From an uncultured bacterium (GTDB lineage Bacteria; Abyssobacteria; SURF-5), in the NCBI GenBank assembly GCA_965602895.1, contig CBFDAY010000001.1:1-31450 (forward strand): a stretch of 31,450 nucleotides of DNA, given 5' to 3'. Below the pieces are notes generated by a model that worked only from the letters and a program-made list of their open reading frames with translations, made no database searches and was not told the DNA's origin. Position numbers and translations under genes: made by a program. This document shows positions 1,008-24,700 of this stretch, one piece after another. The number at the start of each line of letters is the position of its first letter. Position 1 is the first letter of the stretch.

Positions 1008-1661
1008 ATGGGACAAAAGGTTCACCCGGTCGGGTTCAGGCTGGGTACCACCAAGACGTGGAATTCCCGCTGGTTCGCCGGCAGGGATTACGCCAAACTC
1101 CTGCATGAAGACCTCGAGATTTGCAAGCTCGTCAAAGAAAGACTTGCACATGCGGGCATATCAAAAGTCGAGGTGGAGCGGATGGGCCAAAAGGCCCGCG
1201 TCACCGTTCATACGGCGCGTCCGGGTATCGTCATAGGAAGGCGCGGCGCCGAAGTTGACCAGCTTCGCGGCGAACTCGAAAAGCTCTCCGATAAGGAAGT
1301 CTACATCGTAGTCCAGGAAATCAAAAAGCCCGAACTCAACGCGCAGCTTGTCGCCGAGAACATCGCGCAGCAGCTCCAAAGGCAGGTCTCATTTCGGCGA
1401 GTCATGAAAAAGACCGTCATCACCGCCATGCGCCTCGGCGCCAAGGGAATCAAAATCCGCTGCGCCGGCAGGCTGGGGGGCGCGGAGATAGCTCGCTCGG
1501 AATGGTACCGCGAGGGCCGAGTGCCGCTGCACACACTCAAGGCCGACATAGACTACGGATTCGCCGAGTGCCAGGCCACGTACGGAAAAATAGGGATCAA
1601 AGTCTGGGTTCTGCGCGACGAGAGCCACGAGCAGGGCGGCGGGAGACGCGAGAGGATCTAG
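1008..1661 (+). CDS. rpsC: 30S ribosomal protein S3
   Basis: [38 protein letters not shown]. Confidence 0.98.
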
Positions 1662-1675
1662 GGGGTAATTAGAAA

Positions 1676-2104
1676 GTGTTAATGCCCAAAAGAGTAAAGC
1701 ACCGCAAAGAGCAGCGTGGCCGCATGAGAGGAAAGGCGTTGCGGGGCAGCACCGTCCACTTCGGCGAATACGGGCTCCAGGCGCTTGAGCCCGTGTGGCT
1801 TACCGCGCGGCAGATCGAGGCCGCACGCATCGCCCTCACACGGAAGATAAAGCGCGGTGGCAAGGTCTGGCTGAACGTATTCCCGGCCAAGCCCGTCTCC
1901 CAAAAGCCCCTGGAAACACGCATGGGCAAGGGCAAGGGTGATCCCGAAAAATGGGTCGCCGTCGTAAAGTCCGGCAGGATCTTGTTCGAGCTCGAAGGGG
2001 TGTCCGAAGAACTCGCCAGGGACGCCTTCCGGCTCGCCTCGCACAAGCTGCCCATCCGCACGCGTTTCGTCAAGCGGATGCGCGCGATCGGAGGCCGTCG
2101 CTGA
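1676..2104 (+). CDS. rplP: 50S ribosomal protein L16
   Basis: [20 protein letters not shown]; GTG start. Confidence 0.98.
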
Positions 2105-13702: not shown

Positions 13703-14176
13703 ATGGATCTGAGCGAAAAAATCTCCAAGCAGGTTCTCACCACGAAGATCGAAGATCTCGTCAGATGGTCGCGCAAGCACTCGCTCTGGCCGATGCCGTT
13801 CGGCACCGCCTGCTGCGCGATCGAAATGATGGCCGTTCTCGCGTCCAGATACGATCTCGCCCGCTTCGGCGCCGAGGCGATCCGTTTTTCCCCCAGACAA
13901 TCCGACCTCATGATAGTCGGCGGAAGGGTCTGCATAAAGATGATGCCGGTCCTCCAAAGGATCTATCTGCAGATGCCCGAGCCCAAGTGGGTGATCGCGA
14001 TGGGCGCGTGCGCGAGCAGCGGAGGCGTGTTCGACACCTACAGCGTGATCCAGGGCGTCGACAATTTCATGCCGGTCGACGTCTACATTCCCGGTTGTCC
14101 GCCGCGCCCCGAGGCCGTCATCGAGGCGGTCATGCTGATCCAGGAACGGATATCGAAAGAGCGACAGGAAATATAA
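13703..14176 (+). CDS. nuoB: NADH-quinone oxidoreductase subunit B
   Basis: [37 protein letters not shown] (cluster N2 ligands). Confidence 0.97.
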
Positions 14177-14192
14177 GCGGAAAGAAAAGATA

Positions 14193-14777
14193 TTGGAAAT
14201 CTATCTCACGGCGAAGTCAGACAAAGAGATCGGCGAGCATCAGTCGCAAACCGCGGGCCGGCTTCGCGCCCGCTTCCCCGACGCCGTTTTGGACCATTCG
14301 GAGTTTCGCGGCGAGATGACAGTCGTGGTCAAGAGCGAGTCCATATTTGAGATTACAGGGTTTCTCCGCGACACGCCCGAGCTGCTCTACAGGCACCTCG
14401 CCGACATCACATGCGTCGACTGCCTGCATCTCGGGACAGAGCGCGGGCGGTTCGCCGTCGTGTACCACTTCTATTCGTTCAAGCATGGAGGCCGAGTCCG
14501 CCTCAAATGTTTTCTGCCCGAAGATGGGCCGCAGATAGACTCGCTCGTGCCGCTGTGGCAAGCCGCCAATTGGCTCGAGCGCGAAGTGTTCGACATGTTC
14601 GGAGTGGTATTCCGCAATCATCCCGACCTCCGAAGAATACTCATGCCCGAGGACTCCCGGCACTTCCCGCTTCGCAAGGACTATCCGCTCACGGGCAGGG
14701 GCGAAAGGGAATCATTTCCCTACGTCACGCGGGACGGCCGGATCATCGAGAAATCTCGTTCGAAAAGGGCAAGGTGA
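14193..14777 (+). CDS. nuoC: NADH-quinone oxidoreductase subunit C
   Basis: ANWLEREVFDMFGVVFRNHPDLRRILMP...PLRKDYPL; TTG start. Confidence 0.96.
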   Translation: MEIYLTAKSDKEIGEHQSQTAGRLRARFPDAVLDHSEFRGEMTVVVKSESIFEITGFLRDTPELLYRHLADITCVDCLHLGTERGRFAVVYHFYSFKHGGRVRLKCFLPEDGPQIDSLVPLWQAANWLEREVFDMFGVVFRNHPDLRRILMPEDSRHFPLRKDYPLTGRGERESFPYVTRDGRIIEKSRSKRAR

Positions 14778-14782
14778 GGCAC

Positions 14783-15997
14783 ATGGCCGGAGCCCGCACG
14801 ATAGACCTGCCCGTGAGCGCATTCAGGGGCATGACTCTCAACTTCGGCCCTCAGCACCCGGCCACCCACGGCACGCTGCGGATCAAAATGGAGCTTGACG
14901 GCGAAATCGTCGCCAAGGCCACTCCTTACATCGGCTTTCTTCACAGCGGTTTCGAAAAGCTCGGGGAGCGCCTCGACTTCAACCAGTACGTAACCGTGGC
15001 CGACCGAATGAACTACATGTCGGCGCTCTGCAACGACATTGCCTGGCATCTGGCGGTGGAGAAACTCTTCGGCGTCGAGGCGCCCAGGCGCTGTCAGTAT
15101 ATCCGTGTCGCGCTCGCCGAGTTGAGCCGGATTTCGGACCACCTGGTTTTTCTCGGCACCCACGCGCTCGACCTCGGTGCGTTCACGGCGTTCCTGTGGT
15201 GCTTCCGCGAGCGCGAGAAGCTGTATGACATCATCGAGATGACGACGGGCGGCCGCATGACCACGAGTTACACTCGCGCCGGCGGGCTGTGGGCGGACAT
15301 ACCGAAGGGGTTCGAAGAAAGAGCGATGGCGTTCTGCAAGCAGTTCCCCGACCGATTGCGCGAGGTCGAGGACCTGCTCACGCGCAACCGCATCTGGATC
15401 GACAGGACGAAAGGTGTCGGCGTCATATCGGGCGAAGACGCCGTGAGTTACGGGCTTACGGGCCCTTGCCTCCGCGCGTCGGGTGTCGTCTGGGACATCC
15501 GCAAGGCCGAGCCGTACAGCTCCTACGAGGACTTCGAGTTCGAGATTCCATACGGCGAGAACGGCGACGTCTATGACCGCTACCTCATGCGGCTCGAGGA
15601 GATGAAGCAGAGCGTGCGAATCACCGAACAGGCCATCAATAAAATGCCGTCGGGCCCGGTCAATGTGGATCAGTCGGCAAAGATATGCTTGCCCCCCAAG
15701 GAAAAGGTCCACACCGAGATGGAATCGCTCATCCACCATTTCGAATTCATCATGCCCGATACGGGGCCCAGATTGCCCGCCGGGGAAGTCTACGTGCCCA
15801 CCGAGTCGCCCAACGGCGAACTCGGCTACTATATAGTCGGCGACGGCAAGAGCAAAAACGCGTATCGCGCCCGCACGCGGCCGCCGTCTTTCGTCAATTT
15901 CCAGGCGTTCTCAAAAATGGTCGAGGGCAGCCTCGTGGCTGACGCCGTGGCGGTTCTGGGCAGCCTCAATATCATCGCCGCCGAACTCGACAGGTGA
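14783..15997 (+). CDS. nuoD: NADH-quinone oxidoreductase subunit D
   Basis: NFGPQHPATHGTLR, DRMNY, ESPNGELG, RPPSF, ELDR C-terminus; no NiFe-binding CxxC; ATG 14783. Confidence 0.97.
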   Translation: MAGARTIDLPVSAFRGMTLNFGPQHPATHGTLRIKMELDGEIVAKATPYIGFLHSGFEKLGERLDFNQYVTVADRMNYMSALCNDIAWHLAVEKLFGVEAPRRCQYIRVALAELSRISDHLVFLGTHALDLGAFTAFLWCFREREKLYDIIEMTTGGRMTTSYTRAGGLWADIPKGFEERAMAFCKQFPDRLREVEDLLTRNRIWIDRTKGVGVISGEDAVSYGLTGPCLRASGVVWDIRKAEPYSSYEDFEFEIPYGENGDVYDRYLMRLEEMKQSVRITEQAINKMPSGPVNVDQSAKICLPPKEKVHTEMESLIHHFEFIMPDTGPRLPAGEVYVPTESPNGELGYYIVGDGKSKNAYRARTRPPSFVNFQAFSKMVEGSLVADAVAVLGSLNIIAAELDR

Positions 15998-16019
15998 GAT
16001 CGAGAGAAGGAACGAGAAT

Positions 16020-16529
16020 ATGGCGTGGCCGTCAAAGGAAACCGACACAAAGCCCAGGCCCCAAGAGCTGCCGGAGGATTTGCTGGTCGAGATCGAAGAT
16101 CTCGTGAGGCGCTATCCCAACAGGCGCGCGGCCCTTATTCCGGCGCTGCGCGCGTGTCAGGACCGTTTCGGCTTTGTCTCCGCCGGCACGATGCTCGCGC
16201 TCGCCGACCATCTCGGGCTTTCGCCGAGCCTCGTGGCCGATACTCTGTCGTTTTACTCGATGCTTCGAACCGAACCCGTCGGGAAATACCACGTTGAGAT
16301 ATGCCAGACACTTTCCTGCGCGCTCTTGGGAGCCGATCTGCTGGCTGATTATCTAACCGAGAAGTTGGGCATAGCCTTCGGGGAGGTTGCTCCCGACGGC
16401 AGATTTTCTCTCGGTAAGGTCGAGTGCATCGGCGCATGCGAGCAGGCGCCGGCGATGCTGGTAAACAACGAGCTTTACGGAAACCTGGACAAGAACCGAA
16501 TAGACGCTATTCTCGACGGGCTGCGGTGA
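16020..16529 (+). CDS. nuoE: NADH-quinone oxidoreductase subunit E
   Basis: [2Fe-2S] N1a ligands CQTLSC...CIGAC; SFYSML. Confidence 0.95.
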   Translation: MAWPSKETDTKPRPQELPEDLLVEIEDLVRRYPNRRAALIPALRACQDRFGFVSAGTMLALADHLGLSPSLVADTLSFYSMLRTEPVGKYHVEICQTLSCALLGADLLADYLTEKLGIAFGEVAPDGRFSLGKVECIGACEQAPAMLVNNELYGNLDKNRIDAILDGLR

Positions 16530-16596
16530 GGGTGGGCCCTGTGGGTTTTCTTAGGCCGACGCCGTAGCGGAAGCTCACACAAGGAATTCTGTCGCC

Positions 16597-16962
16597 ATGC
16601 TGAGAGATTATATCCCGGTGCTCATGCTGTTTGTTATAGTGTTCGGCTTCGCCGCGTCCAGCCTCATCGTTACACATATTTTCGGACGGCGGAGGCGCGG
16701 TCACGTCAAGCTCGAGCCCTACGAGTCGGGCATGCCGCCCATCGGCGAGACGCTCGGGCGCGTCCCCGTCAAATACTACCTGTTCGCGATGTTCTTCATC
16801 ATATTCGACGTCGAAGTCGTCTTCTTGTATCCATGGGCGGTCATCTTCAAAGACTCCATCGAAGAGCATCCCTTCGTGCTCATCGAGATGTTTATATTCC
16901 TTATCGTGCTCATCGTAGGCCTGGCCTATATCTGGCTCAAGGGCGGTCTTGAATGGGAGTGA
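16597..16962 (+). CDS. nuoA: NADH-quinone oxidoreductase subunit A (relocated)
   Basis: KLEPYESGMPP, YYLFAMFFIIFDVEVVFLYPWA, KGGLEW. Confidence 0.97.
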   Translation: MLRDYIPVLMLFVIVFGFAASSLIVTHIFGRRRRGHVKLEPYESGMPPIGETLGRVPVKYYLFAMFFIIFDVEVVFLYPWAVIFKDSIEEHPFVLIEMFIFLIVLIVGLAYIWLKGGLEWE

Positions 16963-18266
16963 ACCCGGTGGAACCGGTACTGCTCAGAAATTGCGGCGTC
17001 GAGAACTCGACCGACATCGATGTATACATGGGGAAGGGCGGCTACGGGGCCGCGAAGAAAGCGCTGAACGACATGGCGCCCGAAGAGATCCAAGCAGAAG
17101 TCACGGCCGCCGTGCTGCGCGGCCGGGGCGGCGCCGGATTCCCCGCGGGCCTGAAATGGAAGTTCCTCGACCGGGATCCCGAGAGAACGCGCTACCTTTG
17201 CTGCAACGCCGACGAGAGCGAACCGGGCACTTTCAAGGACCGCGTGCTTATCGAGACCGATCCCCACCAGCTTATCGAGGGAATGATTATTTCGTGCTAC
17301 GCCCTCGACGCGCACACCGCATACATATACCTTCGCGGCGAATACGCAAACAGCCGCCGCACACTCGAAAAGGCCCTCGCCATGGCGCGAGAGCGCGGAT
17401 TCCTCGGCGAAAACATACTGGGGTCAGGCTTCGACGTCGAGATACATCTCCACACGGGCGCCGGCGCCTACATTTGCGGAGAAGAGTCGGCGATGCTCGA
17501 GTCGCTTGGCGGCGTCCGCGGCTGGCCGAGGCTGAAGCCGCCCTACCCGGCGACGCGCGGCGCGTTCTATGAGCCGACCGTCATCAACAACGTCGAGACC
17601 CTCTCGTGCATTCCTCACATCGTGTCTCGCGGGGCGGAGTGGTTCAAGAGCATGGGAAGCCAGAACAACTACGGGCCGAAGCTTTACTGCCTCAGCGGAC
17701 ATATCGAGAGGCCCGGCGTGTATGAATATCCCATGGGAGTGACGCTGAGAGAACTGATCTTCGAGGCCGGCGGAGGAATTCCTAACGGACGAAAGCTCAA
17801 GGCGATCCTGCCCGGCGGGGCTTCTTCCGCCGTGCTGACGCCGGAGGACCTCGACGTGCCGATGGATTTCGATTCGGTCTCCAAGGCGGGCAGCATGCTC
17901 GGCTCGGCGGGCATCATCGTCATGAACGACTCGACCTGCATGGTGAACGCCTGCTGGAACGCGGCCCGATTCTACGCGCACGAATCGTGCGGACAATGCA
18001 CGCCGTGCCGCGAGGGGACAAACTGGGCGGCGCGCATCCTTGGGCGCATCGAGCGAGGCGAGGGCAAACCTGACGACATCGACATGATATTGAAAATTTG
18101 CGACAACATGCTCGGTCGGACAATCTGCGCGCTCGCCGACGGCGCGGTCTTTCCGATACGCAGCATCCTGCTCAAGTTCCGCGACGAGTTCGAGCGACAC
18201 ATCAAGAGCGGCGCCTGCCCGTTCGGGACCGACAAGAAAATGCGGTTGCTGACCGCGAAGATATGA
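16953..18266 (+). CDS. nuoF: NADH-quinone oxidoreductase subunit F
   Basis: GRGGAGFPAGLKW, NADESEPGTFKDR, GAGAYICGEE, N3 ligands CGQCTPCREG...C; start may be 16953, 16959 or 16968. Confidence 0.97.
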   Translation: MGVNPVEPVLLRNCGVENSTDIDVYMGKGGYGAAKKALNDMAPEEIQAEVTAAVLRGRGGAGFPAGLKWKFLDRDPERTRYLCCNADESEPGTFKDRVLIETDPHQLIEGMIISCYALDAHTAYIYLRGEYANSRRTLEKALAMARERGFLGENILGSGFDVEIHLHTGAGAYICGEESAMLESLGGVRGWPRLKPPYPATRGAFYEPTVINNVETLSCIPHIVSRGAEWFKSMGSQNNYGPKLYCLSGHIERPGVYEYPMGVTLRELIFEAGGGIPNGRKLKAILPGGASSAVLTPEDLDVPMDFDSVSKAGSMLGSAGIIVMNDSTCMVNACWNAARFYAHESCGQCTPCREGTNWAARILGRIERGEGKPDDIDMILKICDNMLGRTICALADGAVFPIRSILLKFRDEFERHIKSGACPFGTDKKMRLLTAKI

Positions 18267-18276
18267 GGGAGCCGGA

Positions 18277-19890
18277 ATGCCGCTCATTCGAATAGACAGA
18301 CGCGAAATCGAGGTCGACGAAGGTACGACAATCATGCAGGCGGCCGACAAGCTCGGCATCTTCATACCTCGCTATTGCTACCATCCGGGCCTCAGCATCG
18401 CCGGCTGCTGCCGCATATGCATAGTCGAGGTGGAGGAATCGCCCAAGCTCCTGACCGCCTGCTCGACACCCGTGCAGGAGGGGATGGTCGTCCGCACCGA
18501 CACCGAGCGCGTAAAAACGGCGCAGCGCACGGTCATGGAGTTTCTCCTGTTGAACCACCCGCTCGACTGCCCCGTCTGCGACCAGGCCGGCGAGTGCGAG
18601 CTGCAGGACTACAGCTACATCTACGGTTTTGCTGAAAGCCGGTTCCGCGAGCGCAAGATAAAGCAACGGAAAAAGGACGTCGGCCGGGATCTGCTTCTCT
18701 ACGCCGACCGCTGCATCATGTGCACGCGCTGCGTGCGGTTCGCGAGCGAGGTCTCGGGATACGGCCAGGTAGGCGTATTCAATCGCGGCGCGCACACGGA
18801 GATCGACGTGTTTCCGGGATTCCGCATCGACGACCTGCTGGCCGGCAACATCGCCGACATCTGCCCCGTCGGCGCGTTCTTGAGCAGGGACTTCCTGTTC
18901 AAGCGGCGCGTGTGGGAGCTGGCGAGCACACCAGGCATATGTCCCGCGTGCTCGGTCGGATGCAACGTGCTGCTCGACCACGCCGACGGCGAAATCATGA
19001 GGCTGCGGCCCCGATATAATCCCCGCGTCAACGGCCATTGGATGTGCGACGTCGGGCGCATGGACTACAGGCTGGTGAGCGGCCCCGACCGCTTAAAGAG
19101 TCCGTTGTTGCGGGAAGGCGTATCACTCGAGTAAATCCCCTGGCGCGAAGCGCTCGCCGGGGCTTCGGCGCGCCTGAAAGAGATCGTCAAAGGGGGCGGC
19201 GCCGACTCGGTCGGTTTCGCTGTGTCTTCCGATGCGACAAACGAAGAGGCGTTTGCGCTTGCAAGGCTTGCGGCCGGGATGGATTCGGCCCATAATCTCC
19301 GGCTGCTTCCCGGCGCCAGGGCAGAGCGCGAGGAATTTGCGGGAGGATTCGTCATCGAGAGCGACCGTTCTCCCAACGAGCGGGGAGTGCTCGACGCGCT
19401 CAGGCACTTCGCGCCTTCCGGCTCGGAGCAGACCCCGACCGATCTTGAGGCCCTCGCCGGCAAGAAGGCGCTGTATGTCCTCTGCGGGCCGCACTCGGAT
19501 TCCGCTTCCATCGATATTCTCGCAAGGGCCGTCGCCGAGGCGGAGTTCTCGATCGTCCAGGCCACACTGCCGTCAGCGCTGACCGAGGGCGCCGACGCGG
19601 TTTTCCCCGGCGCGGCATATGCGGAAAAGGACGGCTCATATACGAATTCGCTCGGGATCGTTCAGCGCATCCGCCCCGCGTTCGACCCGCCGGGCGAGGC
19701 GGAGCGGGATATCAACATCCTGGTGGATTTTGCGGACGCGATGGGAGTCGCACTCGGATTTGAGACTGTGGCCGAGGCGTCATCCGCGATCGGGCGCGAA
19801 ATCGAAGGTTACGTGGAGCTTGAGCAGATCGGCGAGACCGGCCGGCCGTTGTCTTCCTCCCGGGCCGGCTCTTTCATGAAAGGTCAATAA
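18277..19890 (+). CDS. nuoG: NADH-quinone oxidoreductase subunit G, short form (537 codons), interrupted by an in-frame TAA at 19132-19134 (pseudogene or sequencing error)
   Basis: ORFs 18277-19134 and 19222-19890 share a frame; the 29 codons between them (IPWREALAGASARLKEIVKGGGADSVGFA) are stop-free and NuoG-like; N1b, N5 (HPLDCPVCDQAGEC), N4 (CIMCTRC...C) and N7 (CPACSVGC...C) motifs present. Confidence 0.9.
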
Positions 19891-19892
19891 TC

Positions 19893-20936
19893 TTGGGGGA
19901 GCATTTCGTCATAGCCGCCATCGCGCTCGTTAAGGCGCTCATTGTCTTCGTCGCTATCCAGGTGACCATCATGTTTCTGACGTTGGCCGAAAGGCGCGTG
20001 AGCGCGTTCATACAGGACAGGCTCGGTCCGAACCGGGTCGGCTGGCAGGGCCTGCTCCAGCCGGTGGCCGACGGGCTGAAGTTCCTGTTCAAGGAAGACA
20101 TTATTCCCGCGCGGGCCGACGTTGTGATCTATCTCATTGCGCCCGCCATGATCGTGATCCCCGCCTTCATGACTTTCGCGGTCATCCCGTTCGGGGATTC
20201 CATTACGCTGGCGGGCAGGCAGATTCGGTTTCAGATCGCCGACATCAACATAGGTTTTCTTTATATCATCGCGATGGCTTCCATCAGCCTCTACGGCATC
20301 ATTTTCGGGTCGTGGGCGTCGTCGAACAAGTATTCGATGATGGGCGGCCTGCGGGCTTGCGCGCAGATGATAAGCTACGAGATACCGCTGGGGCTGTCGA
20401 TCATAGGTGTGCTGATGATGACGGGTACGCTCCGGCTCGACAGGATCGTCGAAATGCAAACCGCGTACATCTGGGGCGTGATACCTCGCTGGAATATCCT
20501 GTTCCAGCCGCTCGCGTTCCTGCTTTTCCTGGTTTCGGCCGTGGCCGAGAACAACCGCCTTCCTTTCGATTTCCCCGAGGCCGAGCAGGAGCTTGTGGGC
20601 GGTTACCACACCGAATACAGCAGCATCAAGTTTGCCATGTTTTTCATGGCCGAATACGCCGCCATGATAACGAGTTCGGCGCTCGTGGTGATCCTGTTCT
20701 TCGGAGGCTGGCATGTGCCCGGCATAGGCGCGCTGGGGCTCCCGCCGCTCCTCCGGGAATTGATACAGGTGGGCGCGTTCGCGGTGAAGGTGGCGGTATT
20801 TTTGTTTGTTTACCTGTGGGTCCGCTGGACGTTTCCGCGGTTTCGCTACGACCAGCTCATGCGGCTCTGCTGGAAGACCCTCCTGCCGCTCGCGCTGGCA
20901 AATATCTTCCTGACGGGCATTGTGATGGCGATATAG
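19893..20936 (+). CDS. nuoH: NADH-quinone oxidoreductase subunit H
   Basis: AERRVSAFIQDRLGPNRVG, QPVADGLK, NRLPFDFPEAEQELVGGYHTEYS, FPRFRYDQLM; TTG start. Confidence 0.97.
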   Translation: MGEHFVIAAIALVKALIVFVAIQVTIMFLTLAERRVSAFIQDRLGPNRVGWQGLLQPVADGLKFLFKEDIIPARADVVIYLIAPAMIVIPAFMTFAVIPFGDSITLAGRQIRFQIADINIGFLYIIAMASISLYGIIFGSWASSNKYSMMGGLRACAQMISYEIPLGLSIIGVLMMTGTLRLDRIVEMQTAYIWGVIPRWNILFQPLAFLLFLVSAVAENNRLPFDFPEAEQELVGGYHTEYSSIKFAMFFMAEYAAMITSSALVVILFFGGWHVPGIGALGLPPLLRELIQVGAFAVKVAVFLFVYLWVRWTFPRFRYDQLMRLCWKTLLPLALANIFLTGIVMAI

Positions 20937-20953
20937 GACATGGAGCTTTGACG

Positions 20954-21481
20954 ATGAGTGGAAAAGACGGGCCACCGGATAGGGCCGGGGCGTACAAGAG
21001 AGAAGAATACGAGATGACCCCGGCCGACCGGATGTATCTGCCCGCTTTGCTCAAGGGATTGACCGGAACCCTGAGGCATCTGTTTGAAAAGAAGTTCACG
21101 GTCCAGTATCCGGAAGAACGGGCGCGGGTGTCTCCGCGTTTTCGCGGCTTGCACCGGCTCAACAAGGACGAGCTCGGGCGGGTGAAATGCGTCGCGTGTT
21201 TCATGTGTTCCACGGCCTGTCCTGCGCGCTGCATCTATATCGTCGGCGCCGAAGCGCCCTGGCCCGACCGCGAGAAGTATCCGGTTCGCTTCGATATCGA
21301 CGAGCTTCGCTGCATATACTGCGGCATGTGCGAGGAGGCCTGCCCCGAGGAAGCCATCGAGCTGACCCAGATTTATGACTATGTAGGAAGCACTCGAAGG
21401 GGACTCATTTACACAAAGGAGATGCTCTTGGAGGTTTACGACAAGACGAAAGATCAAGGCGGCATGAAGAAATGGGACTAG
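20954..21481 (+). CDS. nuoI: NADH-quinone oxidoreductase subunit I
   Basis: TVQYPEE, RFRGLH, CVACFMCSTACP and CIYCGMCEEACP; ATG 20954 with SD GGAG. Confidence 0.96.
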   Translation: MSGKDGPPDRAGAYKREEYEMTPADRMYLPALLKGLTGTLRHLFEKKFTVQYPEERARVSPRFRGLHRLNKDELGRVKCVACFMCSTACPARCIYIVGAEAPWPDREKYPVRFDIDELRCIYCGMCEEACPEEAIELTQIYDYVGSTRRGLIYTKEMLLEVYDKTKDQGGMKKWD

Positions 21482-22128
21482 TCGCTTATCTTATGTTCGG
21501 AGCATTGGCGGGACTGACGGCGATCAGGGCCGCAAGGTCGCGCGGCCGGGGCGAGCTTGCGGTGTGGGCGGCGGCCGTATGCGGGTTTGCGCTGGTCGCG
21601 GCGGTTGCGGCGTTTCGCGGCGTAAACGAGTTCTCCGACTTCATCTTTTACTTCGTGGCGCTTGTGTCGGTCGTCTCCGCGCTCAGGGTTGTGACCCAGA
21701 CCAATCCCGTGCACAGCGCGGTCTGGCTCATCACGGTCTTTTTGTGCATGGCGGTGCTGTTCGTGCTCCGGAGCGCCGAGTTTCTGGCCGCGGTGCAGGT
21801 AATCATATATGCCGGCGCCATCATGGTGCTCTACGTGTTCATCATCATGTTTGTCGAAGTCGACACTCAGGACGAGGAGCCGGCGCCGTGGTGGATGGTC
21901 GCCGGCATGCTCGCGATAGTGACCGTCCTCTTGCTGGTGGTTGCGCCGATCGCCGCAGGGCTGCGCCCCGAGGCGCCGGTTCGGGCGTCCGCGTCCGGCT
22001 ACGGCGCCGTCGAGAGAATGGGCGCGGCAATCTATTTCAACGCAACGCTGCCCTTTGAGGTGGTGTCGCTCATATTGCTCGTGGCGCTGGTGGGCGCCGT
22101 ATTGATAGGGAAGGCCGAGAGGGAATAG
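21472..22128 (+). CDS. nuoJ: NADH-quinone oxidoreductase subunit J with an ~50-aa N-terminal extension
   Basis: TNPVHSAVWL, AEFLAAVQVIIYAGAIMVLYVF, LPFEVVSLILLVALVGAV. Confidence 0.94.
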   Translation: MGLVAYLMFGALAGLTAIRAARSRGRGELAVWAAAVCGFALVAAVAAFRGVNEFSDFIFYFVALVSVVSALRVVTQTNPVHSAVWLITVFLCMAVLFVLRSAEFLAAVQVIIYAGAIMVLYVFIIMFVEVDTQDEEPAPWWMVAGMLAIVTVLLLVVAPIAAGLRPEAPVRASASGYGAVERMGAAIYFNATLPFEVVSLILLVALVGAVLIGKAERE

Positions 22129-22130
22129 AT

Positions 22131-22433
22131 TTGGTCACGGCATCGGAATACATGATACTAAGCGCGGCGCTGTTTGCGATCGGGGCCATGGGCTTCATGC
22201 TTCGGCGCAATATCATAGTAATGTTCATGTCGGCCGAGCTGATGCTGAACGCGGTCAACCTCAACTTCATCGCGTTTTCGGCCGAGTGGGCGAACTCCGC
22301 CGGCGAGACCTTCGCCGTGTTTGTGATAGCCGTTGCCGCCGCGGAGGCCGCCATAGGGCTGGCGATCCTGATGCTTCTTTTCAGGGCGCGCGCCACGGTG
22401 AGTTCCGACGACTGGAGGGGGCTGAAGGGTTGA
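22131..22433 (+). CDS. nuoK: NADH-quinone oxidoreductase subunit K
   Basis: RRNIIVMFMSAELMLNAVNL, VAAAEAAIGLAI (both conserved Glu); TTG start. Confidence 0.96.
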   Translation: MVTASEYMILSAALFAIGAMGFMLRRNIIVMFMSAELMLNAVNLNFIAFSAEWANSAGETFAVFVIAVAAAEAAIGLAILMLLFRARATVSSDDWRGLKG

Positions 22434-22478
22434 GCGTGCAATGTGCGATGAAAGCGATCCGGGCCGCGTGGAGGTGAC

Positions 22479-23966
22479 ATGAATTTAGAGGGTGGCTTAA
22501 AGCTGGTGGCTCCCGAGGCGTTTCTTTCCGTCGCGGCGATGGCGATCTTGCTGCTGGGCGCGATCCTTGGCGATCGCGCAAGGGCCCGGCTTGGGCATGC
22601 GACGCTTGGCGCGCTCATAGTCGCGGGGCTTCTCGTGTCGAGGGTCGACCTCGACGAAGCCTGCTTCGGCTTTTCAGGAATGTTCGCGCAGGACGGATTC
22701 GCCGTGGCTTTCAAGATGATATTCCTGCTTGTCGGGATATTGACCGTGCTTGTCTCGTTCGACTTCCTCCGTGCGCGCAGCATTCCCAGCGGCGAGTTTT
22801 GCGCGCTGCTGCTGTTTTCAATAGTCGGGATGATGCTGCTCGCCTCGGCCCATGACTTCATGTTGTTGTTTGTGGGGCTGGAGCTTACGTCGCTGTCGAC
22901 CTATATCCTCGTCGGCCTGATGAAGAAGGACTTGTGGTCGAATGAGGCGGCGATAAAGTATTTCCTGCTCAGTATATTCGCCTCGGCGGTCTTGCTGTTT
23001 GGAATATCCGTCCTGTACGCGGCCGTGGGGACAACTAATTTCGCGCAGATCCAAAAGCAGATGGGCGAGGTCGTCGCCCGGTCGCATGGCGCGGCGATCT
23101 TGGCCGCGGTGTTTATTCTGGCCGGATTCGGATTCAAGATCACGGCCGTGCCGTTTCATATGTACGCGCCGGACGTGTATCAGGGCGCGCCGACGCCGGT
23201 GACGATTTTCCTTTCGGTCGGCCCGAAGGCCGCCGCTTTTGCGGGCCTGGTGCGGGTGCTTGCGGCAGGCGGGCCCGCGATGGCCGCCGACTGGCTGCCG
23301 TTGGTGAGCGCCCTGGCCGTGCTGACAATGACCGTGGGCAACTTGGCCGCGGTCGTCCAGAGCAACGTCACGCGATTGCGGGCCTACGCGAGCGGCGCGC
23401 ACTCGGGATACGTGCTCATGGGAGTCGCCGCCATAGTCGGCGACAGCGGCTCTACTGCCGGCGCGCCGGGAATTGCGGCCAGTGTGGTTTTCTACCTGTT
23501 CGCATATACGATCATGAACGTCGGCGCCTTCAGCCTCTTGATGTGCATGAGGCGCGGCGACGGGTTTGGAGAGGAGCTTTCCGATTTCTCCGGCCTGGGC
23601 AGGCGCAGACCGGCGGTCGCGGCCGCCATGGTGCTGTTCCTGCTGTCGCTGGCGGGGATTCCGCCCACGATAGGCTTTCTCGGCAAGCTCTATATTTTTA
23701 CGGCGGCGATGCGCGCCGGACTGTATTGGCTTGCCGTGGCGGGTGTTGTGAACGTTGTGATTTCGCTTTTCTACTACGCCCGGATTGTCGTATACATGTT
23801 CATGCGGGAGCAGGAAGTCGAAGTGAGCGACGTGAGGTCGCTCCCGCTGGGGCTGGCGATGGGAATTACGGCGGCTGCGACCGTTGTTCTGGGCGTGTTT
23901 CCCCAGGCCGTTCTGTCCGCAATCGAGCGGTCGGCAGCCATATTTGCAGGAGGGATCTTTTCATGA
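22479..23966 (+). CDS. nuoN: NADH-quinone oxidoreductase subunit N
   Basis: PE in TM1, GLELTSL, EAAIKYF, GFKITAVPFHMYAPDVYQGAPTP, SLAGIPPTIGFLGK, ISLFYY. Confidence 0.95.
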   Translation: MNLEGGLKLVAPEAFLSVAAMAILLLGAILGDRARARLGHATLGALIVAGLLVSRVDLDEACFGFSGMFAQDGFAVAFKMIFLLVGILTVLVSFDFLRARSIPSGEFCALLLFSIVGMMLLASAHDFMLLFVGLELTSLSTYILVGLMKKDLWSNEAAIKYFLLSIFASAVLLFGISVLYAAVGTTNFAQIQKQMGEVVARSHGAAILAAVFILAGFGFKITAVPFHMYAPDVYQGAPTPVTIFLSVGPKAAAFAGLVRVLAAGGPAMAADWLPLVSALAVLTMTVGNLAAVVQSNVTRLRAYASGAHSGYVLMGVAAIVGDSGSTAGAPGIAASVVFYLFAYTIMNVGAFSLLMCMRRGDGFGEELSDFSGLGRRRPAVAAAMVLFLLSLAGIPPTIGFLGKLYIFTAAMRAGLYWLAVAGVVNVVISLFYYARIVVYMFMREQEVEVSDVRSLPLGLAMGITAAATVVLGVFPQAVLSAIERSAAIFAGGIFS

Positions 23967-24700
23967 AATGCCCTGAGTGCGGAACGGAAAACACTGGAGA
24001 CCATAAGTTCTGCGGCAATTGCGGCGGAGCCCTCGGCGAGGCGAGCGTCGGCGACCTGTTCGAGAGAGCGTTCAAGAGCGAGGCCAGGGGCGACCTCGAA
24101 GCCGCGCTCGAAATATATGGCCGACTGAGCGACAAGAAGCCCGAAAGCCAGGAAATCCTTTTCAAGGTGGGCATGGTCTGCTATGAGCTTGGCCGCGTGG
24201 ACGAGGCCATAGAGAAGTTCCAGAAGATCATCGAGGAAAACCCGCGATTTATCTACGCGCATTTTCGGCTGGGTTTGTGCCGTTATCAGAAGTGCATGAT
24301 CGAGGAGGCCATAGGCTCCTATTCCGCCGCGCTTGCGACCACGCCCGACTTTGTTCCGGCCTTGCTGCAGCTTGGGCTCGCGCAGTTTCACATAGGTCGC
24401 CTGGAGAAGGCCGCCGAAGCTTTTCAAAAAGTCGTTGAGTGCGGGCGTTCCCATACCATCGCCCATTACTATCTCGGCCTTGTCTATGAGCGCATGAGGC
24501 GTTCGGACGAAGCAATCGAGCAGTTCAATATTGTCGTGAAAGAGAATCCGGACGACCCCTCCACGCATTATCACCTGGGAATCCTTTACAAGCGTAAGTT
24601 CATGCGCGACGCGGCCATCGGCGAGCTTATGAGGGCGCATCAGCTCGATCCCGACGACAATTCGACGCTTGAGGAGCTGAGTTCCCTGCAGCAGAAGTAG
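23963..24700 (+). CDS. Zn-ribbon plus TPR-repeat protein (245 aa)
   Basis: MKCPECG...KFCGNCGG followed by about 6 TPR-like 34-aa repeats (e.g. AHYYLGLVYERMRRSDEAIEQFNIVVKENPDD); ATGA overlap with the nuoN stop. Confidence 0.88.
   Translation: MKCPECGTENTGDHKFCGNCGGALGEASVGDLFERAFKSEARGDLEAALEIYGRLSDKKPESQEILFKVGMVCYELGRVDEAIEKFQKIIEENPRFIYAHFRLGLCRYQKCMIEEAIGSYSAALATTPDFVPALLQLGLAQFHIGRLEKAAEAFQKVVECGRSHTIAHYYLGLVYERMRRSDEAIEQFNIVVKENPDDPSTHYHLGILYKRKFMRDAAIGELMRAHQLDPDDNSTLEELSSLQQK

Follow-up and report, generated by a model that had tools for sequence, protein, structure and literature searches.

The window analyzed here is the whole of contig C1 (CBFDAY010000001.1, 31,450 nt) of a fragmented metagenome-assembled genome (MAG; focal genome G000, assembly GCA_965602895.1, 567 contigs, 95.7% complete) from an uncultured bacterium of the lineage Abyssobacteria SURF-5. 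Genes were called with Pfam and NCBIfam profile scans, which gave 13 co-directional genes between positions 13703 and 24700, namely nuoB, C, D, E, A, F, G, H, I, J, K and N, with a Zn-ribbon/TPR gene as the last one. This operon would encode a respiratory complex I (NADH:quinone oxidoreductase) with NuoN as its only antiporter-like subunit; nuoK and nuoN are neighbors, and nuoL and nuoM are missing from between them. Hereafter, we designate the lineage of this operon as type 1 and a second nuo set, found on contigs C4 and C215 of the same genome, as type 2. The features of the type 1 operon are the following:

13703-14176, + strand: nuoB, 157 aa, with the N2 cluster ligands including the tandem CC (PF01058, 100 bits)
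14193-14777, + strand: nuoC, 194 aa (PF00329, 152 bits)
14783-15997, + strand: nuoD, about 404 aa from an ATG at 14783 right after the nuoC stop (PF00346, 380 bits)
16020-16529, + strand: nuoE, 169 aa (PF01257, 157 bits)
16597-16962, + strand: nuoA, 121 aa, located between nuoE and nuoF (PF00507, 117 bits)
16953-18266, + strand: nuoF, 437 aa (PF01512 and PF10589)
18277-19890, + strand: nuoG, short form of 537 codons (TIGR01973, 393 bits over the first 285 aa)
19893-20936, + strand: nuoH, 347 aa (PF00146, 407 bits)
20954-21481, + strand: nuoI, 175 aa from an ATG at 20954, with orthologues of 175 aa in relatives (Fer4 families)
21472-22128, + strand: nuoJ, 218 aa (PF00499 over residues 69-212)
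22131-22433, + strand: nuoK, 100 aa, both membrane Glu kept (PF00420, 94.5 bits)
22434-22478, + strand: nuoK-nuoN spacer, 45 nt with a GGAGGTG Shine-Dalgarno, the site of the ancestral nuoL-nuoM deletion
22479-23966, + strand: nuoN, 495 aa, the sole antiporter-like subunit in the operon
23963-24700, + strand: Zn-ribbon/TPR gene, 245 aa, its ATG overlapping the nuoN stop (Pfam)

The antiporter-like protein of the operon is NuoN, with a score of 413 bits against TIGR01770 (cut-off 332.6) versus 137 bits against the NuoM model (cut-off 263.8). When all contigs were searched with PF00361, this was the one match on the window's contig, and thus no second antiporter-like gene was found there. Residues E135, K220, K250 and K403 of NuoN align with the TM5 Glu, TM7 Lys, TM8 Lys and TM12 Lys of Paracoccus Nqo14 and were invariant in an alignment of seven orthologues and the type 2 NuoN. 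The other proximal membrane subunits, NuoH, A, J and K, are present with their E-channel carboxylates, as judged by the residues named in PMC8357420, including the FDVE carboxylates of NuoA and the AEF Glu of NuoJ. The NuoJ protein begins with an N-terminal extension of about 55 aa (21472-21630) composed of two hydrophobic segments on either side of an Arg/Gly-rich loop. The quinone-reducing (Q) module, NuoB/C/D/I, is also present and has both the N2 ligands and the His/Tyr quinone site of NuoD (HPATHG and RMNY motifs); the length of nuoD is consistent with a 404-aa orthologue in a relative. The NADH-input (N) module was recognized by Pfam, with the flavin mononucleotide and Fe-S domains of NuoE/F/G (PF13510, PF10588 and PF22117 in NuoG), and tblastn of the genome indicated that the nuoF of the window codes for its sole NuoF. 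A scan of the locus for promoters and terminators only gave matches near chance. Taken together, the profile searches, the alignment and the motif reading upheld what an initial annotation, made from the sequence alone, had described: 12 nuo genes with a 45-nt gap between nuoK and nuoN, no NuoL- or NuoM-like open reading frame (ORF) in the window, the charged residues of NuoN, both Glu of NuoK, the NuoE/F/G module, the HPATH and RMNY motifs of NuoD and the CC of NuoB.

The direct succession of nuoK and nuoN was not limited to the focal genome. The order B-C-D-E-A-F-G-H-I-J-K-N was found in all six other species-level genomes of the family with an orthologous NuoN (63-78% identity to the window NuoN), and the distance between K and N in these relatives went from an overlap up to about 130 nt, which is too little for a gene. 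Four metagenome contigs presented the same gene order, with the same NUDIX gene upstream and the same 245-aa gene downstream, bringing the K-N adjacency to seven species genomes and four metagenome contigs (NuoN 63-97% identical). Outside this group, K adjoined N in none of about 130 other NuoN loci from many phyla, and a search with NuoN against 5.8 billion proteins returned 21 clusters at ≥64% identity, the next ones being only at 50%. With a MAG split into 567 contigs, a mis-join that dropped L and M could be suspected. However, the architecture was identical in 10 other independent assemblies, and positions 22434-22478 were bridged by Logan contigs from independent sediment metagenomes (X2, 22130-22513; X4, 22304-22537; X1, from 22432). 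An assembly or binning artefact is therefore ruled out with near certainty and the K-N junction is real. Its conservation in related genomes, which the initial annotation had proposed to check, was thus confirmed. The runs X1 to X4 place these organisms in marine and freshwater sediments. Two of the relatives (G002, L042 5117-7008; G006, L044 10830-12669) carry about 1.9 kb inserted between nuoE and nuoA.

The closest NuoN proteins outside this clade (P0023 to P0025, 48-50% identity) formed a joint clan with it in a mixture-model tree (100/100). Two of these sister loci were readable in context, and in both nuoM (and nuoL) lies upstream of nuoN, with a homologue of the Zn-ribbon/TPR gene (46-47% identity) downstream of it (L136 4070-4834; L137 2116-2859). 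L137 is a metagenome contig, and the other locus comes from a MAG labelled Planctomycetota (CAYPFP01, G041), which has an A-B-C-D-E-F-G-H cluster whose B, D, H and F are 59-75% identical to those of the window and whose NuoG is similarly short, as well as a NuoJ-NuoK-NuoL segment on contig C76 (L169) in which NuoJ (1413-2033, minus strand) bears the same two-helix N-terminal extension. Hence, type 1 and the sister operon have in common the NuoN clan, a TPR gene downstream of nuoN, the extended NuoJ and a short NuoG. The sister operon differs by having nuoL and nuoM between K and N and the usual A-B-C-D-E-F order. In the type 1 relatives, TPR orthologues (75-77% identity) also follow nuoN, the NuoJ extension is conserved, and nuoA lies between nuoE and nuoF.

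These comparisons show that the ancestral operon was ...J(ext)-K-L-M-N-TPR and that exactly L and M were deleted in the focal lineage. Older than the deletion are the extended NuoJ, the shortened NuoG and the TPR gene, and the relocation of nuoA is the only trait specific to the L/M-less operons. Since the sister lineage with L and M already possesses the first three traits, they are not adaptations to the loss and, likewise, a NuoJ extension that occurs next to NuoL is not a substitute for the NuoL anchor helix. The initial annotation had interpreted the NuoJ extension, the coupled TPR gene and the displaced nuoA as consistent with a remodelled membrane arm. Only the displacement of nuoA co-occurs with the loss; the NuoJ extension and the TPR gene are traits of the lineage. 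With or without L/M, the TPR gene is the conserved and translationally coupled last gene of this nuo lineage, and its 245-aa product may be an assembly factor or a peripheral subunit specific to the lineage. A survey of 301 genomes of the phylum of the sister MAG with the TPR marker gave two matches, with only nine candidates scored per genome. As for NuoG, its length in the lineage is about 507-537 aa, compared with about 780-900 aa in model bacteria and 856 aa for the second NuoG of the focal genome; the Fe-S domains are retained and the molybdopterin-like domain is only a fragment, a feature common to the L/M-bearing sister (L144 7363-8883).

To describe the constraint on NuoN, conservation profiles were compared between type 1 and type 2 proteins from the same seven genomes. 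Mean column conservation was 0.79 for type 1 and 0.85 for type 2. The lower values of type 1 were in residues 3-88 (window 22485-22742), with 0.50-0.73 versus 0.70-0.89 for type 2, and the rest of the protein was equally conserved. This N-terminal region corresponds roughly to the helices missing from metazoan ND2. No relaxation was observed in residues 343-439 of type 1. Only five fixed changes of type 1 NuoN were not found in the sister (Y174F, G181A, A222T, A243I, A482I), no clear clade-specific signature emerged, and very few canonically conserved sites were relaxed.

One may ask whether the operon is a decaying relic or encodes a non-pumping NADH:quinone oxidoreductase. Conservation of the membrane subunits is slightly lower in type 1 than in type 2, as seen above for NuoN, the operon was not found in three genomes of the family, and codon 286 of nuoG is an in-frame TAA (19132-19134) in this assembly. 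However, the relatives examined have intact copies of all 13 genes, and their nuoG is a single uninterrupted ORF of 514-537 aa with Glu at this site, and two contigs of related strains from other metagenomes, about 95% and 98% identical to the window in this region, read GAA at 19132. Furthermore, the cofactor ligands, the E-channel carboxylates and the Lys/Glu residues of NuoN are invariant in orthologues down to 63% identity. No reads identical to the window were found that cover the TAA, which stems either from a mistake in the assembly or from a private nonsense mutation and in both cases has no bearing on the architecture of the whole lineage. Judged by this conservation, a relic or a non-pumping enzyme appears distinctly unlikely.

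Our favored reading, with a probability of about 0.5, is that the type 1 operon encodes a self-sufficient short-arm NADH:menaquinone oxidoreductase that pumps about 2 H+/2e-. We are a little less confident, at somewhat under an even chance, of the fuller statement that this is a naturally evolved and selectively maintained complex I working with NuoN alone, without NuoL and NuoM, at the same stoichiometry of about 2 H+/2e-. The enzyme would be composed of an NADH-oxidizing module (NuoE/F/G), a quinone-reducing part (NuoB/C/D/I), a proximal pump (PP) module (NuoH/A/J/K/N) and a soluble TPR partner. The operon originated through a clean deletion of nuoL-nuoM from a ...K-L-M-N-TPR operon, as phylogeny and synteny show, and purifying selection has since maintained the L/M-less form in a small phylum without cultured members. 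NADH would reduce menaquinone, with coupling through the E-channel and the single NuoN, and about 2 H+/2e- would be pumped instead of 4. Such a low-gear NADH dehydrogenase would be able to turn over at a high proton-motive force or with a small redox span between NADH and menaquinone. We infer both the composition of the particle and the H+ stoichiometry of the assembled enzyme. In line with this reading, the loss took exactly the distal pump (PD) module, at a known modular boundary, and type 1 has its own second copies of A, H, J, K and N, only L and M being without a dedicated copy.

Menaquinone is the likely acceptor because a MqnA/D-family gene is present in the genome and neither MenB nor UbiG had a match above the cut-off. 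With standard potentials of about -320 mV for NADH and about -75 mV for menaquinone, the available span is about 0.49 eV per 2e-, which would be marginal for 4 H+ at 150-200 mV and comfortable for 2. The initial annotation had also considered an enzyme with a lower H+/2e- ratio as suited to reverse electron flow, but this is backwards: fewer H+/2e- means less drive for the uphill transfer from quinol to NAD+. Indeed, fewer pumped protons aid forward turnover against a high proton-motive force and hinder reverse electron flow, for which the uphill step requires more protons per electron pair. This is illustrated by the 2M complexes, which are thought to serve reverse flow (PMC12342949).

Enzymes of this composition have been obtained experimentally. 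The nb8mΔ subcomplex of Yarrowia lipolytica, which lacks ND4 and ND5, is active with half the pumping stoichiometry (PMC3160329). Similarly, plant CI*, without the PD module, is stable and oxidizes NADH with decylubiquinone (DQ), and its authors proposed that it is a "low gear" form pumping 2 H+/2e- and working at a small driving force (PMC7447434). Both follow the same subunit logic as the type 1 operon, that is N, Q and PP modules with ND2/NuoN and without ND4/ND5 (NuoM/NuoL). However, nb8mΔ is the product of a mutant and CI* is an assembly intermediate, and the genomes concerned encode dedicated ND4 and ND5, whereas the loss described here is fixed in a conserved operon.

The absence of L and M, as claimed by the initial annotation, holds for the operon and the window, but a single copy each of nuoL and nuoM does exist in the genome. 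PF00361 matched exactly four genes of the assembly, the window nuoN and three adjacent genes on contig C4, which encode NuoL (705 aa; 729 bits, NF005141), NuoM (601 aa) and another NuoN of 503 aa. They belong to the type 2 set. On C4 (L006 2-9915), this set comprises J-K-L-M-N together with a GltD-like gene and a full-length NuoG, and its A-B-C-D-H-I genes lie on contig C215. A cognate nuoL-nuoM pair elsewhere in the genome had been named beforehand as an outcome that would go against a shortened arm; a pair does exist, yet it sits inside a separate set and, by synteny, is part of a different and complete membrane arm. By tblastn, the genome has no further NuoE or NuoF. In a better-assembled relative (G002 contig C64, L130 1958-13074), the first gene of the type 2 operon, located behind divergently transcribed genes, codes for a 699-aa fusion of a NuoF C-terminal 4Fe-4S region, Fer4_20 and a GltD-type NAD(P)H flavoprotein. 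The type 2 complex is possibly NADPH-linked or reversible. All 11 species genomes of the phylum carry the type 2 set with one canonical L/M pair each, including all seven with the type 1 operon. Two genomes of the family (G002 contig C68, L131; G005 contig C7) have a third, ordinary F-G-H-I-J-K-L-M-N cluster, the presence of which does not track the type 1 operon. The type 2 NuoM (L006 6602-8407) extends about 90 residues past the end of the TIGR01972 model.

In the NuoM tree, the type 2 protein grouped (99/94) with its counterpart from the sister lineage of type 1, as its sister. The NuoL tree gave no resolved placement for the type 2 NuoL, and a NuoN clan uniting type 1, its sister and type 2 was not rejected by the approximately unbiased test (p-AU 0.11). 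Types 1 and 2 are thus probably rather closely related, and cross-docking of their subunits is conceivable. We also considered that the type 2 L/M pair had been transplanted from the type 1 operon, and rejected this given the NuoL tree and the occurrence of the same M clade in G010 and in family genomes without a detected type 1 operon. Together with the NuoN test, these data are more simply explained by two related nuo lineages. An Mrp or other antiporter as a stand-in partner was rejected as well, since the focal genome has no further PF00361 gene and no Mrp; relative G006 has an Mrp cluster about 22 kb from the operon on the same contig, but it is not conserved with the operon.

The type 2 set nevertheless offers a rival explanation, in which the type 1 operon merely lost redundant copies of L and M and the type 2 NuoL and NuoM from C4 dock in trans on both NuoN proteins, giving a canonical-length complex I with about 4 H+/2e-. 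We regard this as a real possibility, although clearly below an even chance, and several of the observations behind it also weigh against a self-sufficient short-arm enzyme. The genome has exactly one L and one M, and the type 2 set that contains them co-occurs with every type 1 operon, so that independence from L/M is never observed. The sister relationship of the NuoM proteins makes cross-docking plausible. In addition, constraint on the distal half of type 1 NuoN has not weakened: residues about 343-439, with the TM12 Lys among them, are as conserved as in type 2 from the same genomes, and this second half of the protein gives no sign of a freed surface. Modular use of distal pumps is also familiar, as the PD module is assembled as a separate unit in mitochondria. 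In cyanobacterial NDH-1, the genes of the distal M/L homologues lie apart from those of the core, and different NdhD/NdhF pairs are exchanged as modules on a common core. This is a precedent for docking in trans, although several D/F pairs serve one core there whereas one L/M pair would have to serve two cores here. On the other hand, the type 2 L and M are encoded within J-K-L-M-N beside their own NuoN and would be made 1:1 with their own partners, the type 1 and type 2 NuoN proteins are only 44% identical, and the two extra helices of type 1 NuoJ have no counterpart in type 2 NuoJ. Moreover, type 1 has kept dedicated A, H, J, K and N, yet not L and M. To our knowledge, no single L/M pair is known to be shared by two distinct cores of complex I.

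Three further points count against a short-arm enzyme that functions on its own. The TAA interrupts nuoG in this particular assembly. In one study, Escherichia coli without NuoL did not assemble a functional complex (PMC3274701), and it has been argued that complex I must become inactive once L/M are lost (PMC8357420). The E. coli deletion and truncation variants of NuoL, which likewise lack the distal pump but still have NuoM, have nevertheless yielded conflicting results, ranging from no assembly (PMC3274701) to 2 H+/2e- (Steimle 2011, as cited in PMC7447434). On balance, the shortened arm with a lower H+/2e- ratio, as put forward by the initial annotation, is the single most likely reading of this conserved operon, and a supply of L and M in trans is its less probable main rival.

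We also compared the type 1 operon with the known members of the complex I family. It shares all N-, Q- and proximal P-module subunits with the canonical 14-subunit bacterial enzyme (Paracoccus 8QBY, E. coli 3RKO/7NYH, Thermus thermophilus 4HEA), together with the cofactor and proton-path residues, and its NuoN aligns end to end with Paracoccus Nqo14. It differs by the lack of nuoL and nuoM, the position of nuoA between nuoE and nuoF, a NuoG of 537 aa, two additional N-terminal helices in NuoJ and a TPR gene coupled to nuoN. The group 4 hydrogenase relatives (Ech, FHL/Hyc, Mbh) resemble the operon in having one or few antiporter-like subunits beside a NuoH homologue. However, they have a Ni-Fe large subunit and no NuoE/F/G, whereas the operon encodes a full NADH module, and its NuoD has the quinone-site motifs and no Ni-Fe Cys motifs, the N- and C-terminal Cys pairs being absent. 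With a single PF00361 gene in the window, the operon is also distinct from the extra-pump types (2M, Mrp-cassette), which have more than three antiporter-like genes.

In full-text literature searches, we found extra-pump variants and laboratory deletions only, and no natural nuo operon reduced to NuoN. Such an operon is relevant to a current dispute on whether every antiporter-like subunit is a pump in its own right or ND5/NuoL is the common exit of all protons (bioRxiv 10.64898/2026.10.02.756245; PMC8357420). The experimental handles on this question have so far been a yeast assembly mutant, a plant assembly intermediate and the conflicting E. coli deletions, and a NuoN-only operon that is intact across genera would provide a clean natural test object. 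If the isolated enzyme still pumps without L and M, models with ND5 as the only exit would fail. The importance of the finding thus depends on an experiment or a multimer model. Should L and M be shared between the two sets, this would be the first case of one distal pump module on two complex I cores, which is less striking but still new. If the short-arm reading is true, NuoN would release protons outside on its own and NuoL would not be the sole proton exit. These bacteria would then have a short-arm enzyme beside the full-length type 2 complex I, whose electron-input module is different. Within the family, the short-arm form would mirror the 2M and five-pump variants and show that nature tunes the gearing of complex I down as well as up.

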